A program made the translations under genes and the position numbers. 64,000 bases of DNA, taken from contig OZ024742.1 of the NCBI GenBank assembly GCA_964016885.1, forward strand, positions 303,738,001 through 303,802,000. The letters run 5' to 3'. The DNA is from Eledone cirrhosa. Lineage: Eukaryota. The notes under the pieces are model-generated. The model searched no databases. It was not told the origin of the DNA and was given only the letters and a program-made list of their open reading frames with translations. Shown one piece after another: positions 16,518 to 56,935 of this stretch (positions are counted from its first letter, which is position 1; the number at the start of each line of letters is the position of its first letter).

Positions 16518-16654
16518 GTTCGGATCTAGCTGTCGAAACGGCCGGAGCTCAGCCGTCGGGGTCCTGACTCTTTTCCTATTATCAACTCTAATACCCTAAG
16601 TATTGAGTACTCTGGTGCGTTATGGTCCACCTGGTATCTTCCGACATCTTCTTT

Positions 16655-25473: not shown

Positions 25474-25675
25474 TAGGAAAAGAGTCAGTACCCCGACGGC
25501 TAAGTTCCGGCCGTTTCAACAGCTAGATCTGAACAGCTAGTTCGGATCTAACTGAAACGACCGGAGCTCAGCCGTCGGTGTCCTGACTCTTTTCCTATTA
25601 CCCACTCTACTACACTAAGTATTGAGTACTCTGGTGCGTTATGGTCCACCTGGTTTCTTACCACACTTTCTTTCT
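25474..25675 (+). mobile_element. Hairpin-head element (inverted repeat 25474-25597 plus tail) next to (TA)n
   Basis: Imperfect ~55-bp arms; tail shared with the other copies. Confidence 0.85.
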
Positions 25676-28374: not shown

Positions 28375-28570
28375 GAACAAGTATGACCCCGACGGCAGAG
28401 CTCAAGCCGTTTCGACGGCTATTTCTGGACGACTCAGAAATAGCCGTCGAAACGGCTTGAGCTCTGCCGTCGGGGTCATACTTGTTCTTATTACCCACTC
28501 AACTACCCTAAGTATTGAGTAATTTGGTGCGTTATGGTCCATCTGGTTCCTTACCACAATTCCTTCGTTA
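28373..28570 (+). mobile_element. Hairpin-head element with a perfect 53-bp inverted repeat plus tail
   Basis: 28375-28427 is the exact reverse complement of 28435-28487; 7-nt loop. Confidence 0.9.
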
Positions 28571-36355: not shown

Positions 36356-39300
36356 CTACAGGATGGTATACAGAGAAGGCCCATTTACACGAGCCATTCT
36401 CGCCACTATCACCCATCTTTCATAAAACTGCCTGTGGCCAAGCACCTCTCTCTCCATTCTTATCCTTCTTCCGAAGTGATATCGGAAGAAGTAGACCAGA
36501 CTATGGCCAGAGAGGAAGTTGCCTGACCTCAGACCTTTCAATCGTGTCCACCAAACAACCTCTTTCAACATGGCTATTACGCACAGAAAAACCGCCTTTG
36601 CTTCCTTTGTGAAGAGGGGAGGCGGTTTGATTGTCATCACGGACTCGGCGGTCAATTGAATCGTAGCCACCCGCGACAGCAGTCGTTCGGCGTAGCCCCA
36701 CAGATCAGTCACGCTCGGACATTGCACCAATGCGTGCGCAACGGTTTCTTCGTGACGCACGCATCTAGGGCAAATCTTTTTTGAGGGATCCCTGCCCGGT
36801 CGCCCGTGTCTGTAGAGCCTCTCTCGAACGGGTAGAGCCCCCCGGTAGCACTGCCAGGCTAGTGACTTCTGGAAGTTGTCCATTGGTCCCGGGCCGAAAG
36901 TCCTACCGAACAGGCTGGCCAGTTCGTCCTCTTCCATGTCCAGCGATCTCTCCAAGGGTGTCATCGCCCCTGCTAGCCACCAGCCCTCTATAGAATGATG
37001 AGGTGGATTCTCCACCGACGGCCTGGCCCGCTTGCCAGAGAGCCCTGAGCGCCTGAGCACACTCAGTGTGCCAGTCTCCCAGTTTTCCGGATCTTTGCTT
37101 GACCCAGGACTGCAGCTCGGTGAGCGAGACGAGTCTCGGAAAGGCTCGTTTCACGAACGGAGCCCACACCGGTTGACCAGTGAGGAATACCTGTAGGTGC
37201 CGTAGCCTTAATGCGTGCCTACGCATCATCAACCACGGCATCCCCAGCCCTCCTTTCGAAGGTTGTTGGCAGCAGATGGATCTTCTCACCATAGGAGGGC
37301 GCTTCTTCCAAAGAAATTGTAAGAGCATGCGTTCCATGGTGGTGAGTGTTTCCTTAGGGCAAGGCACGACAGTCAGGCGGTAGTAAGTGACGGACGCTAT
37401 GTAAATGTTCGCCACCTCCGCGCGCCCTTTTAGGGACAGCTTACACTTGGCCCATTTCTGGGTTAGTGCAAACACCTTGTTCGTAACCTCGTTCCAGTTC
37501 TTTTCCACCTGGAGGTCCGGTCCAAACCAGACCCCAAGCAACTTTACCGGGCTCTCCGTCCAGTGTCCGACGACACCGTCGGGAGGCATCGGTCTGCCTC
37601 TCCACGTTCCTAGTTGCAGCCCGATGGATTTTTCCCGGTTCAGTTTCGCTCCTGACAACCTTTCGTAATCCTCCAGTAAGGTACCGATCGCCTCGATCTC
37701 GGTCGATACCATTACTGTTACGTCATCGGCGTAGGCCGACACCGCTTTGCTCAATCCTGGTTCCAGGGGGATACCCTGCAACAACTCCAACTTCCTCAGT
37801 AAAGGCTCGAGAGTCAATACGTACAGAAGGGAGGAGAGAGGGCAGCCCTGTCGAATGGATCGTGTGATTTCGAACGGCTTCGAAAGGTAGCCGTTCACCT
37901 TGATCCTAGAACAGATGTGGTTGCTATGTAAGGCAGTGATCCAGCCTCTGAAAACAGGACCGAACCCAGCCGCCGCTAGCACCGCATCCAGGTAACCATG
38001 GTCGACCCTATCGAAGGCCTTAGACTGATCCAAGTTGATCAGGGCCCCACCGAAGCCGGGTTTGTTGCCAACCCTCTCTATGATGTATCGCATGAGGTGG
38101 AGGTTATCGTGAATGGACCTGGATGGGATAGCATATGTCTGCGCATCTCCCACCAGGCCACCCACGACAAGCGCCAACCTCTTTGCTAACACCTTGGCCA
38201 AAATCTTTAACTCTGTGTTTAGCAGGGTTATGGGCCGAAAATTATTTTTACTACCTCCCTTGTTCTCGTCCTTCCTCACCAGCGTGACTACGCCCTTGCC
38301 TACAGAACAAGGAATTCTCCTGTTCTGCTGCCAATTGCAGTAGACCGCTTCGAGGAGTTCAGAGAAGAAGACCGGCATTGCTAAATAAAGTTCGTAAGGT
38401 ATACCATCGAGACCTGGAGATTTGCGTCTGCTGCATCGGCTCAGCGCATCTCCGATCTCATCAGCCGAGATTGGTCCCTCGCAGGACTCTGCCTCTTCGC
38501 TCGAGAGACGCGGCAGGCCATCGAGGTATGGACCGAAATCCACGCCCCAGCCCGAACCCTCGCCTCCCTCGAACAATCGGGCAAAGTGCCTTTGAAAGGA
38601 CTCGCACATCTGCTTAGGCTCCCGGATCACCCGTCCATCTTCGTCTTGCAACGACCGGATGGTGGATCGATTTCCACTCTTAGCTTCTGTCACGCGGGCC
38701 CAGCCAACGGCTTTGGCCCCCTCATTATCTAGAGCACGTATTTTACTTCGAATGACGCAGCCTTCGTGCTTTGCATCGAAAAACTGGTTCAAGGCCGTCC
38801 TCGATGCCAGCACTCTGGCCACATCTTCGCTCTTGATTGCCTCTTCTAATTTACCTGTTAATTCTTTCTCGTTTCTATTCCTATCGGCAGCTAACATCTT
38901 GCTATAACTTATTGATTCTGTTCTAATCTCTTTTGAGAGATGCCCACCATCGGTTGTTGACGATTGCACCCGTCAACCTCTCCTTAACTAATCTGCTAAT
39001 CCGGTTTCTGTTAGTCTCTTTTGCCAGTAAAGACAAATTAAGTTTCCAGTAACCGGGACCCTGTTTATGTGTTTTCTCGAGATTGACTACGCAGGTCACT
39101 AATTTGTGATCCGTGTAGCCAACCGTGCGCATTTCTGGACAGCTTAATATGTCCCTATCCTTAATTCTAACTAAGAATCTATCTAAGTACGATCTAGATT
39201 GACCACTGTGGTTTCTCCAAGTCCAGGTAGGCACAGTTGGAAAATCTAGTCGATATCTATCGACCAAGTTAAAACGGTCGAGTAACCCCTTGAAGCTGTT

Positions 39301-39763
39301 ACACCCCCCTCTATTAGGACATGCTCCTGCATAGTCCCAACGTGCATCCAGGATGTCATTCCAATCCCCCGCTAGAAGCAGGGAACGCGACGTTCCCAGA
39401 AAAGTCTCCAAACGCTGGAAGAATTCGGGCCGTTCAGCTCCCTAAAGGGGAGTAGACGGCGACCAGTCTCAAGGCCGCACCTTCACTACTGCCAACGTCT
39501 AGCACCAACAAACGACCCTCCGGGTCCGAGTGCACAACCTGTACGGCAAGACCCAGGTGTTTTTGCAGCAGTACGACAACCCCACCCCCACCTCCAGGTT
39601 GACAGAGAGATGCATGCACCTCAAAGTCATCGAAAGTGATTCGAGTCTCACAGATAACCATTACATTTATACCACATGACCTGAGGTCATTTAGAAGCTT
39701 TGCTTGCTTCCAAGTTGAGCCCAGGCCACGTGCATTCAAACATCCTACTCTTAACACATCCAT
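36356..39763 (-). pseudogene. Tx1/L1 ORF2: APE endonuclease, reverse transcriptase and C-terminal cysteine motif, split by three frameshifts
   Basis: LNARGL, AGDWN, SYLDR, YTDH; FRPITLLN, LDQSKAFDRVDH, IRQGCPLS, AYADD; CPRC..HEETVAHALVQC. Confidence 0.93.
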
Positions 39764-43856: not shown

Positions 43857-44422
43857 CCGTTTCGCGGACCATTTTGCTGAACATTTGAGGGACGTACGAC
43901 TCGGTATGGATACTCCCGTCGTCCGTTATTTCCATTCCCCAGGTCACTCTTCCCTACATGTCTCAGTCCTTGGTGTCCTTTTACATCATCGATCACAGGC
44001 ATCGCGCACCAGAACTGAGCAGAGTCTGATTTTCCGCCTTGGGTCCTGTTTCCTCGTATATTCACCCCTACATTCCTATGGCTCTCTTATGGTCAGAAAC
44101 GTATACTCATACAGCTGATACAGACCAACAAAATACGCACAGACACCTCTACATTTCCTTTCACTGCTCTATATACAAACAAACACATAACCACTCCCTT
44201 ATATTAACATGGCAACATGAATGTACCTGTTATTTTTCTCTAAATCATTTTCCCCTATTCCGCCCTACCTGTCCCTTCAATCTTTCTAATTTCCACTTCT
44301 ATCATCTGATGAAGGGCTAGCGGCCGAAACTTTAAGACACTCTTCTTGCTATTTCAAGCGTTAAACTAATATATTATTTCCATATACTGTACCGATTGTG
44401 TTGTCATTTCTGTTTACCTCTT
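43857..44422 (+). mobile_element. PLE 3' fragment (Penelope/Neptune-type GIY-YIG end and 3' repeat)
   Basis: RFADHFAEHLRDVR...PVVRYFHSPGHS...SVLG...EQSLIFRLG; hammerhead in the 3'UTR. Confidence 0.82.
44302..44337 (+). ncRNA. Minimal type I hammerhead motif
   Basis: CTGATGA AG GGC TAGCG GCC GAAAC TTT A AGA; stems I and III weak. Confidence 0.6.
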
Positions 44423-45243: not shown

Positions 45244-45314
<71 letters not shown>

Positions 45315-45359
45315 GAAAATAAAACAAAGAAGCCTTCAATACATCAAAAGTCTTTGTTA

Positions 45360-45397
45360 GCCAACGATGTTTCGTCCTATTAAGGACTCATCAGGGC
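45360..45397 (-). ncRNA. Minimal type I hammerhead ribozyme
   Basis: GCC CTGATGA GTCC TTAATA GGAC GAAAC ATC GT T GGC. Confidence 0.82.
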
Positions 45398-46645
45398 AAT
45401 CAAAACCACAAGAAGCACTATCGGCCAATACAAGCCGAAAACTCCGAAGAATATGGAGTGTACATACACTAAAGTATTGGAAGATTATGGGTAAAAATAT
45501 ATAATAAAAATCACTAAGGAGGTGGATAACATTTTTGCCTTATTAGGTATTTTAAATATTTTCAATATTAATTTATCAAATAGGGTTTTCTAGTCATTTA
45601 TCCGGGTTGTTTCCTAAGTTTTTGCTTAACTGCATGTGAGACCTAAGTAAATACTTTTGTTTTTGTTTTTTGATTTCCGGTCGATTTTATTTATTTATTT
45701 ATTAATACTACTGTGCATAGTATTTTCTGTCTGGCCCTTATTCACTCTTTCACATATGTGTCTGTTTACCAACCTTGTAATTATAAGTAATTATATATTA
45801 TATTATGTTCATTATTTTATATTGAAGTTGTTATTCAACTCTTTGTAAATGTACTATTTATCCTTATTACTTACCGATGATTTTATGTACCATTATGAAA
45901 TGTTAAATTTTATATATCATGTAAGATTTTTGTACCATCATAATTTTGGGTATTGTACAATTTATTTTTTTTCTCACCTACTCTGTAACTCTATATTAAT
46001 TGATTTGTTAACTTACATGCCATTATATATTATATATTATTATATTATTATTATAGTGTTATTGTGACATCTATATTGTTTGTGTAAATTAACCGGAGAT
46101 TATCTATTATATTATATTATATATTATATAATTATATAGTTTATTATATATTATATGTGTTACTTTTAATCATTTCATTACTTCATGTTATACTGTATAT
46201 TAGATATACGTATTATTTTTATTTTTATTCCTATTATGCTTATTTATATTTAAACTCTTAATAAGGTTTAATTTGTGCTGTTAATGATGGAAATGTGTAT
46301 TGATGTATATGTATATGTGCGTACGTGTGCGTATATATATACATATGTATATTGTGCCTTTTAATTTTAATTTTAATTTTAATATTGTTACAAGTATATT
46401 ATATTATATTATATTGTATTACATATAGTACTATAATTCCCGCTCTATATAACCACCTTTGTTTAGCACTAGTTTTTTTGCTTTGGACTATATTTGTAAT
46501 ATGGTTCAAAATGTTATCCACCTCCTTAGGGATTTTTATTATATATTTTTACCCACAATCTTCCAATACTTTAGTGTATGTACACTCCATATTCTTCGGA
46601 GTTTTCGGCTTGTATTGGCCGATAGTGCTTCTTGTGGTTTTGATT

Positions 46646-46683
46646 TCCCTGATGAGTCCTTAATAGGACGAAACATTGTTGGC
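46646..46683 (+). ncRNA. Minimal type I hammerhead ribozyme
   Basis: TCC CTGATGA GTCC TTAATA GGAC GAAAC ATT GT T GGC. Confidence 0.8.
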
Positions 46684-46830
46684 TAATAAACACTTTTGAT
46701 GTATTGAAGGCTTCTTTGTTTTATTTTCATAATTTTTCGGCTCTGTTTAATTACATTGAGCTATACCTTTTACTGTCATTTCTATAGCACGAAGAGGGTG
46801 TTTAACTCCAACACACTCCAGTATTTTAAT

Positions 46831-46892
<62 letters not shown>

Positions 46893-46898
<6 letters not shown>

Positions 46899-47207
46899 AA
46901 ATATTTTGTATCTCCAAAGAAATACAGTTTTAGGAAGCCGTAGCTATGCAAACACCTGGGGGATAACGCCCTCTGGTGATATCCAGCAGAAGCAAGGGGG
47001 ACAACCGTCAGCAGTTGCAAGCGGTGGGAGGGACCGTCCTGACTGAAGGCCAGTTAAGCCTGAAATGCATAGACGGTTGTCCCCCTTGCTTCTGCTGGAC
47101 AACACCAGAAGGTGTTTGCATAGCTACGGCTTCCTAAAACTGTATTTCTTTCGAGATACAAAATATTTATACATATTGTATAAAGCTATGCTAGAAGCGA
47201 AATCCTA
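46893..47207 (+). mobile_element. Foldback element: inverted arm, hammerhead, arm and tail, in (TA)n
   Basis: 46893-47009 is the reverse complement of 47072-47173, with one indel of about 15 nt. Confidence 0.85.
47033..47077 (+). ncRNA. Type I hammerhead with 8-nt core variant CUGACUGA
   Basis: ACCGTC CTGACTGA AGGC CAGTTAA GCCT GAA ATGCAT A GACGGT; palindromic stem III. Confidence 0.72.
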
Positions 47208-47218
47208 TATATATATAA

Positions 47219-47417
47219 CAAAGATTGTGTTGTAAGAAACCAAGTGGGCCATAACGTACCAGAGTACTCGTTACTTAGGGTAGTAGATTGGATAATAGGA
47301 AAATAGTCAGGACCCCGACGGCTGAGCTCCGGCTGTTTCGACAGCTAGATCGGAATTGCCCGGATCTAGCTGTCGAATCGGCCGGAGCTCAGCCGTCGGG
47401 GTCCTGCCTCTTTTCCT
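47219..47417 (-). mobile_element. Hairpin-head element (inverted repeat 47297-47417 plus tail)
   Basis: Antisense copy of the 25474/28373 family. Confidence 0.85.
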
Positions 47418-54646: not shown

Positions 54647-56631
54647 TATCTCATATACTTCGGAAAACATCATATGGATTTTGCCTGATGTTTCCAGCGG
54701 AGAGAGAGTATTAAATATGTCACATTGACGAGACATCACCGCCCCGAACACAGAATGCCGAAATATGGTTATAAGAATAAAATATTATATTAAATGTAAG
54801 CTCAAATTGAATTCCTATACTTCACATGAAATCACTATTTTCGTCTCGGGAGACAAAGAAATTATTGAAGCCAGAAAGAAAACTGTAGATCTAACATAGT
54901 ATCTGTCCTATATCTCTATCATGTCTCAAGAGACCTTGCTATGGTGCCACGTCGGCCCCACTCTCATAATATTAACGGTTGCTTACAATTCTTTTCCACT
55001 TAGATAGAACGACCCTTATAACACACATTTCTTGCAAAGCCTTAGAGAAACACACAATCATTTTCCTCTTTGCCATCTACACAACTTCCAATGAGTCCTC
55101 AAATTGGTATTTCGATTACCTAGCAATTGAACCCAAGTCTTCCGCAAATCACATCTTAAAATCTTAAAGAAAAGTAATGGCACCTTGAATAATGCATTGC
55201 GCAATACAGTATCTCCCATCCCACCCCTAAAAAATCGATGGTCTTCACTGGATAACTTTTGGTCAATCAAAGCCTACTTGCGGTGAATCAACAAAAGAAC
55301 ATAAGTTTCAAATATTTTCAGTTATCTGTTTCATCGTTCAGTTTGTTGTGTGATGTTAGAAGAGTCTTTTCATACATAATCAGTGTTCTCTAATGTTTCC
55401 TTTCAAATTCACTTAGCAAATATAATTTACCGTCGCTTTCGTTTGTACGCCAACTTATTTTAAAATTAGCTGTCATTTCCCGCTAAATCACCTTAATATA
55501 AATTCTAATTATTACTGTCAACTACACTATAACTATTCAACATAATACATGATCTCCAAACTTTCCCTGTTAGTCGACAATGATATTCGTTTAACGAATT
55601 TCGGCTTTCTATTTACAACAATTGTTATCATTCTATGTATTATATCTACACGAATTCATTGCAAATGAACCAATGTATTTGTTCGAGATTCTTTAAAATT
55701 AAATGACTTATATCTGACAAATCACACCATGCATTTCTAGAATAAGATGTACACATTGCAAGATGTAATCTAATATGAAGCATGTTAGAAGGAAAGAAGA
55801 GATGATATTGTTTGTAACAACCTTTGTCATATTTCTGCTTGATCAGGACTGGCCAATGGTTACTACTGTTACACCTTTAGCCTGTAAACACCCGGCAGCT
55901 TTGTTAGGAATCTTTTTATGGATTATATTTCTAGGTACCTAACACTTTGGTCGAGGCAATCTTTCTGGAAAATGTGTATATTCATCATATGCAAGGGTGT
56001 GGGTATTGATGGCATGCAAAATATTAACTCAACCTTATCTCATACACTTAAAAAACTATTACATTCTTGCCGCTTTTTGTTGTTGTTACTTAAGTCTTTC
56101 GTTTTACTATTTCTGTTTGTTCATATTTGTTCAATGTTGAAAGCAATCAATTAACGGAGACGTCTAATGTTTGTAGAAAAATTACTTTATCTTTGCTGCT
56201 CAATATGTCATTCAAGGAAGAAAATAAGTATTAATGAAAAAAGTAAGAAGGATTTTGAAGTAGAAACGCATTCGTTCAGCACAGCCATGTAAGAGTAAAC
56301 AAAAGGAATATGGCTTCTTTCTACTGAAAGACTTCTTTAAGTTTTGAGAACACCGAGGAACGAATTTGATGCCAAAACCGGTGAGACTGTATGTTTAACA
56401 TATTTAGATTTGATGTTTAGAGTTCTGAGATTGAATTCAACATTGGCTACTTTATTCACTTGAAGGGAGCAATCAAGATCGACTGTGTATCATCGTCTAA
56501 TTAAATTGAATATTGTGAAGAGTTGAAACGAATCAGAGAGATCGTTGTCGACTAGCAAAGGTAAATACAGATCGTCATACACATATTGATGGTGCTTGGG
56601 TAACATATGATGTCGTATATACATATATAGA

Positions 56632-56935
56632 AATAGGATTTCGCTTCAAGCATAGCTTTATATAGATAAGGCCTTCATCATTACGGTCCCTCCCACCGCT
56701 TTCAACTGCTGGACTTGAAAACTGTCGAGAATATATAGTTTTCTCGTCTGTGTAAATAAGGTGATTAATCTCATTTGTATATGAAGCTGCATAAGTTGCC
56801 TCAACTTATAATAAAATAGAAATGGGATCTCACTTCAAGCATAGCTTTATACAGATAAGTATAGAAATTTCATATTTCTAAAGAAACACGGTATGTTTAC
56901 AGGAAACATTTAGGAAGCTGTAGCTATGCAAACAC
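56632..56935 (-). mobile_element. Deleted tandem relatives of the 46893-47207 element
   Basis: Antisense matches to AGCAGTTG.AAGCGGTGGGAGGGACCGT, to the tail TATAAAGCTATGCT.GAAG (twice) and to GTGTTTGCATAGCTAC.GCTTCCTAAA. Confidence 0.7.

Follow-up and report, generated by a model that had tools for sequence, protein, structure and literature searches.

The question raised by this locus is whether a fold-back repeat, whose inverted arm stops exactly at the predicted cleavage site of a ribozyme, preserves a record of cleavage in vivo. The locus lies in a window of 64,000 nucleotides from Eledone cirrhosa (the whole stretch of DNA that was analysed), to which all coordinates refer. Here, a 315-bp fold-back is embedded between (TA)n runs, and its arms at 46893-47009 and 47072-47173 are reverse-complementary, as had been described in a first-pass annotation of the same sequence. 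The arms are 91-99% complementary and pair with 3 mismatches, leaving a 14-nt piece that is present in the left arm alone, and the folding energy of the unit is -196.6 kcal/mol (z-score -21.9). The type I hammerhead that had been placed between the arms was recovered by motif scan with its core at 47039; it lies at 47033-47077 and is predicted to be cut after AUA, at 47071/47072. Positions within the repeat are numbered from this predicted cut, with +1 being the G after the cut (47072 in the window) and -1 the base before it. The left arm does stop at the complement of 47072 (+1), and pairing is broken at the next base, which is the coincidence that had been taken as the trace of a cleaved RNA end.

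The unit can be read as two copies of one monomer that face each other. The left (TA)n run (46834-46893) is the target and likely the primer of the left arm, judging from the sequence, in that the arm starts in register with an AT-rich site of the family near +118. The left arm itself (46893-47009, minus strand) is an inverted, 5'-truncated monomer copy that runs from +118 to +1 (or +2), matches a natural monomer at 92%, and keeps a 14-nt hairpin tip that the arm alignment shows to be absent from the right arm. The two copies meet head-to-head at 47009/47010 and share one base, and the sense copy then extends over 47010-47207 (plus strand), from about -62 to +150, crossing the cut site and matching a natural monomer at 88%. 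It is followed by the right (TA)n run (47206-47217), the other side of the target and likely the primer of the right arm. The C at 47009 is also the next base of the family upstream of the right arm; it fits both arms, so that the breakpoint can be placed at +1 or +2 with 1 nt shared, and in the family as a whole, junctions with 1-2 nt of overlap are the most frequent (34 of 118). The 34-nt unpaired tail at 47174-47207 (plus strand) is ordinary monomer sequence, +119 to +150, and is present because the two arms differ in their 3' ends (+118 on the left, +150 on the right). Microhomology of ACCGTC with the 5' strand of stem I, which the first-pass annotation had named as an alternative origin of the junction, does not account for it, as the point of joining lies about 24 nt upstream of this strand. 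A search for open reading frames of at least 120 aa found none overlapping the unit.

The hammerhead of the window copy comprises stem I (ACCGTC/GACGGT), stem II (AGGC/GCCT), the GAAA element and a palindromic stem III (ATGCAT), and its stem I is extended by imperfect pairing of 47010-47038 with 47072-47096. Its core carries an extra T at 47044 (CTGACTGA) relative to the CTGAYGA of the family, and a genome search with this variant (CUGACUGA) returned a single match, the window copy itself, so that a source variant with this core was rejected. Rfam gave no match anywhere in the window at gathering score, and none to 47033-47077 even at E values up to 1, whereas two neighbouring hammerheads were matched.

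The fold-back belongs to a 322-nt ribozyme-bearing mobile repeat, likely a non-LTR retrozyme, of which the genome contains about two thousand dispersed copies. A search of the 3.0-Gb genome with the window unit yielded 2175 candidates, and a 16-mer anchor at +6 to +21 has 1879 exact matches. The monomer measures 322 nt from cut to cut (natural monomers, 309-341 nt), and other copies run past the 3' end of the window unit and loop back into its 5' part; exact dimers were matched 35 times, the longest run comprises about 4 units, and no long array was seen. The family has features of non-LTR retrozymes, namely a type I hammerhead with a short palindromic helix III, a tandem monomer within 150-450 nt, and non-coding sequence with a GC content below 50% (0.45 in one natural monomer), and LTR-like ends are not apparent in the architectures of its copies. 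Among 247 distinct copies in register, drawn from 427 anchors, each letter of the hammerhead core is conserved in 234-245 copies, and the whole core is intact in 177. Paired changes between subfamilies occur in stem I (C-G in 189 copies, T-A in 21) and at three positions of stem II (A-T 180/G-C 15; G-C 212/A-T 12; G-C 204/A-T 24), although the copies are related, so that these counts stand for only a few independent events. The helix III palindrome reads ATGCAT, or ATGCGCAT in an older subfamily, and such a palindromic form has been described as needing a dimer (PMC4209133). Folding predictions show stem I with its long extension, as well as stem II, in both the monomer and the circle. A further piece, of the older subfamily, lies in the window at 56629-56932 on the minus strand; it spans about +55 to -20, includes a short duplication and lacks the cut site. 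Elsewhere, six or seven identical copies are spaced about 55-110 kb apart (G000:C1:143.35-143.80 Mb), likely reflecting a segmental tandem duplication that slightly inflates the counts.

Across this family, the ends of the arms are scattered over the whole monomer relative to the cut, the very outcome that the first-pass annotation had set against its own interpretation. The 5' ends of 100 unselected arms range from +6 to -320, and 95 of these arms extend past -11; of the remainder, four end at +6 to +2, and the fifth represents a deletion inside the copy, at the cut. All 30 rows from dimer loci (30 fetched out of 35 matches) read through both cuts, and a pile-up of ends at the second cut of exact dimers was therefore rejected (0/30). 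Since these dimer arms cross two cuts, a linear monomer running from cut to cut cannot be their template. Two genome-wide filters, which require two mismatches upstream and recover the majority of arms with a break close to the cut, gave 44 and 58 matches, respectively, all of which were fetched and scored by eye on script output, with small indels, subfamily variants and same-strand deletions dropped from the counts. The second filter yielded 24 ends at +1 to +6 (4, 5, 4, 7, 2 and 2 by position) and 3 at -1, corresponding to 0.42% per nt, also at +1 alone (measured pass rate 0.51), and the first yielded 17-20 ends at +1 to +6 (0.34% per nt for 17) and 5-8 at -7 to -1 (0.14% for 8). A control window at +19 to +32 gave about 0.43% per nt (82 matches beside 1169 intact copies), a rate that uses an estimated denominator of about 1400 and scales the 21 true ends among 30 fetched loci to the 82 matches, and the rate at -12 to -60 is 0.46% per nt, rising with length. 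At +1, 4 ends were seen where 4.1 are expected, and a peak at the cut is absent with two independent filters as well as in the unselected sample. The proposal that the end of the left arm records cleavage in vivo is thus not supported at the level of the family, the rate at +1 being that of the control. Chance alone should give about eight copies in the genome that end at +1, and the window copy is one such; its stop at the predicted cut is likely due to chance, and that its junction records cleavage is unlikely. The element type is already known and the fold-back is real, but this single junction is not evidence of cleavage in vivo.

What the family does reveal is a regular architecture of insertion. 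The 91 unselected loci, which contain the first 100 anchor matches of contig 1, comprise 53 head-to-head loci, 37 of a single orientation and 1 mixed locus. The 3' ends of the arms fall into two classes, one near +118 and the other near +150 to +165. Where both ends of a head-to-head locus belong to these classes (30 loci), a short end is combined with a long one in 26 (P 3e-5), a rule that the window unit follows with its left arm from +118 and its right arm to +150. Of the 25 top copies that end at the matched 3' end, 23 continue into a TA repeat (scored by eye; genomic background not computed). Rare variants are common to the two arms of one insertion about 9 times more often than in shuffled pairs (32 shared variants; 25 of 88 pairs), and tandem units share them about 7 times more often than shuffled ones (11 of 82), which could also reflect gene conversion or a homogeneous multimeric transcript. 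The window arms carry no rare variant usable for this comparison. At many loci, each arm also holds sequence that the other arm is without. In some insertions (L108, and G000:C18:19934804 with 19935043), the same unusual insertion or deletion is found in both units, and hence was likely already in the RNA template. The family shares with Penelope-like elements (PLEs) an inverted 5'-truncated copy at the 5' end, a one-sided tail of 30-40 bp and a bias towards microsatellite targets, and the unit is without the open reading frame for reverse transcriptase (RT) and GIY-YIG endonuclease that marks an autonomous PLE.

We therefore favour, with a probability of roughly 70%, the reading that the unit is a head-to-head retrozyme copy, reverse-transcribed from circular RNA by a Penelope-like enzyme, with primers supplied by the two sides of a (TA)n break, and that its stop at the cut site arose by chance. 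Transcripts with two hammerheads would self-cleave as dimers and would then be ligated into 322-nt circles, self-cleavage and circularisation having been demonstrated in retrozymes of other animals (PMC7229834). The (TA)n target would be cut by a Penelope-like RT/GIY-YIG protein, and each DNA end would anneal to an AU-rich site of the RNA, one near +118 and one near +150 to +165, so that both could prime. The two cDNAs would stop at variable points, and their 3' ends would then be joined to each other with the help of 0-3 nt of homology. With a circle as the proposed template, it would be expected that nearly all arms cross the cut, as they do, some of them two or more times. Much of the earlier model is retained in this reading, namely a small retroelement that is non-coding and carries a type I hammerhead, a Penelope-like inverted 5' copy and two cDNAs of opposite polarity, whereas the end of the arm as a record of cleavage is given up.

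The alternative that survives best applies to this copy only and is rather unlikely. It holds that the template was linear, cleaved at an upstream hammerhead with the internal one dead, so that the left cDNA ran off the cleaved 5' end whereas the right cDNA continued through the dead ribozyme; templates of this kind would be outnumbered by circles. In its favour, the left arm of this copy stops at +1/+2, and the core inside the copy is damaged by the unique extra T, as a linear template would need, but this T may postdate the insertion. Candidates for further arms of this type are among those longer than one monomer, as four of the nine caught by the filters end at +1 (L090, L194, L239 and L172, the latter possibly at -1), where about one is expected (rough P 0.02, or 0.08 without L172; a post hoc group with an estimated expectation). 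Three of these four have a damaged internal core or triplet, compared with 70 of 247 copies generally. However, no excess at +1 is seen over all arms, and short arms like that of the window supply two of the four ends at +1. Immediately 3' of the cut, arm ends are also about 2.5 times as frequent as immediately 5' of it, a point in favour of run-off, but this step is due to ends being scarce at -7 to -1 (at most 8 seen versus 25 expected, P about 1e-4), roughly threefold rarer than on either side, a scarcity that the favoured reading does not account for and that counts against it. As the rate at +1 to +6 equals those at +19 to +32 and at -12 to -60, the step across the cut is an upstream dip rather than a peak.

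Deletions around the cut provide a weak lead for cleavage, not a result. Within -11 to +5, 10 deletions of at least 2 nt were found in about 1001 copies (12 matches minus two slips of 1 nt), and the 3' edge can be placed at +1 in 7 of these, two of them with added bases (naive P <1e-4; post hoc). In a wider window, the 3' edge falls at the cut in 5 of 19 deletions, compared with 1.3 expected (P 0.008), but the excess was not replicated among new cases in the wider window (1 of 14), and the edge lies at the cut in none of 2 deletions in old subfamilies and none of 4 large deletions. Moreover, most of the cut-edge deletions are equally placeable at the end of the palindrome. The cut region as a deletion hot spot was rejected, its frequency being unexceptional (10 in about 1001 copies versus 2 in 648, and 13 in a third window of unmeasured denominator). 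It is a tentative idea, and on balance rather unlikely, that rare copies keep a fossil record of the ribozyme, in which the cut-edge deletions (some with added bases such as TTT) would be scars of cleavage, 3' trimming and re-ligation of the circle, and a minority of arms, perhaps including that of the window, would be run-off products of linear RNAs with a dead internal ribozyme. If the deletions were such ligation scars, they would constitute genomic evidence that retrozyme circles, and not their precursors, serve as template.

Formation of the inverted arm at the DNA level, during or after insertion, by fold-back synthesis or by conversion from the right arm, in a MITE-like manner without a second reverse transcription, would agree with the high complementarity of the arms and with the rare variants they have in common, but is highly improbable given the 14 nt of family sequence that the left arm holds and the right arm is missing, the arm-specific sequence at many loci and the different fixed 3' ends, as well as the dimers and the covarying hammerhead, which point to an RNA template.

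The family can be compared with several described systems. Like the metazoan non-LTR retrozymes, it has a type I hammerhead, a monomer of ~300 nt, a GC content below 50%, non-coding sequence and tandem partial dimers, and for those retrozymes a circular RNA template and mobilisation by PLEs have been proposed (PMC7229834). In contrast to them, the copies described here are dispersed, comprise mostly 1 to 1.5 units, lie in (TA)n, are often head-to-head, and are known from genomic sequence; the word 'inverted' is absent from the main text of that study (PMC7229834). Insertions of endonuclease-bearing PLEs likewise are truncated at the 5' end or form partial tandems, carry an inverted and 5'-truncated copy next to their 5' end as well as a tail of 30-40 bp on one side, and lie in microsatellites, often (TA)n (PMC8557442), whereas here there is no open reading frame, the ribozyme-bearing monomer stands alone, the tail measures about 32-47 nt, and no homology to PLE ends was found in 48 loci. 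Retrozymes of Xenopus and other vertebrates also occur as dispersed monomers and dimers with type I hammerheads, alongside autonomous PLEs, but 24 of 57 vertebrate families matched annotated elements, 21 of which were PLEs, compared with none in the 48 loci here (bioRxiv 10.64898/2026.07.22.740005). The same preprint argues for an origin of retrozymes from PLEs (PLE pseudo-LTRs), and reports that 8 of 9 tested dimers did not cleave in vitro (bioRxiv 10.64898/2026.07.22.740005). Within the journals that it covered, our literature search turned up no work that maps breakpoints or deletions with respect to the cut site of a retrozyme, and no retrozyme for which the rule of one short and one long end is described. 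In L1 twin priming, two target-primed cDNAs give rise to an inverted 5' part that is joined head-to-head through short microhomology. The junctions described here resemble this arrangement, yet both arms start at fixed internal sites of the RNA and usually hold the same sequence, whereas the two L1 parts are adjacent stretches of one linear RNA.

Insertion by a Penelope-type retrotransposon is likely. RT + GIY-YIG elements that end in (TA)n are present in the genome, with frames of up to 1096 aa that contain RT motifs, and the Pfam RT domain scored above cut-off in one of two proteins scanned from these candidates. The survey of GIY-YIG elements scored 150 matches out of 10596 candidates, and 48 loci were compared with the monomer, among which no DNA similarity to it was detected, a negative that counts against the favoured reading. 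One RT/GIY-YIG family (L390, L391, L395, L398, L399 and L401) has long open frames and near-identical 3' ends that run into (CA)n(TA)n; it has no hammerhead core in its 3' end and is possibly recently active.

Other elements of the window are also associated with (TA)n or with hammerheads. Adjacent to the unit, a second head-to-head element of another family lies between (TA)n runs at 45310-46834, with arms at 45310-45535 and 46508-46733 that are 97% alike. It contains hammerheads at 45357-45400 (minus strand) and 46643-46687 (plus strand), with Rfam matches below gathering score, and has a tail of about 100 nt. The element resembles the 3' end of a PLE, and the junction between its arms is far from its hammerhead and not at the cut. 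A 121-nt fold-back with 55-nt arms at 47297-47417, before a TA run, represents another (TA)n-associated family, with related copies at 25475-25596, 16519-16577 and 28385-28477, and at 36 fetched loci. A further hammerhead-like motif (CTGATGA ... GAAA) was noted by eye at 44300-44345, near the 3' end of another repeat. The minus strand of 36356-39441 carries a frameshifted LINE-type element with endonuclease, RT and zf-RVT matches, which was rejected as a relative of the unit, being unrelated by any test made.

The way in which PLEs form tandem and inverted insertions with a one-sided tail has been called unresolved (PMC8557442). A short passenger present in about 2000 copies, in which two fixed priming sites are used once each per insertion and the arms share variants of the template, constrains the mechanism of PLE integration, and the retrozyme family offers a small substrate for an in vitro integration assay. 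Under the tentative reading of rare copies as a fossil record of the ribozyme, the about 2000 copies, together with the strict pairing of a short and a long 3' end in each insertion, would provide a base-level map of the Penelope-type integration of a circular RNA.
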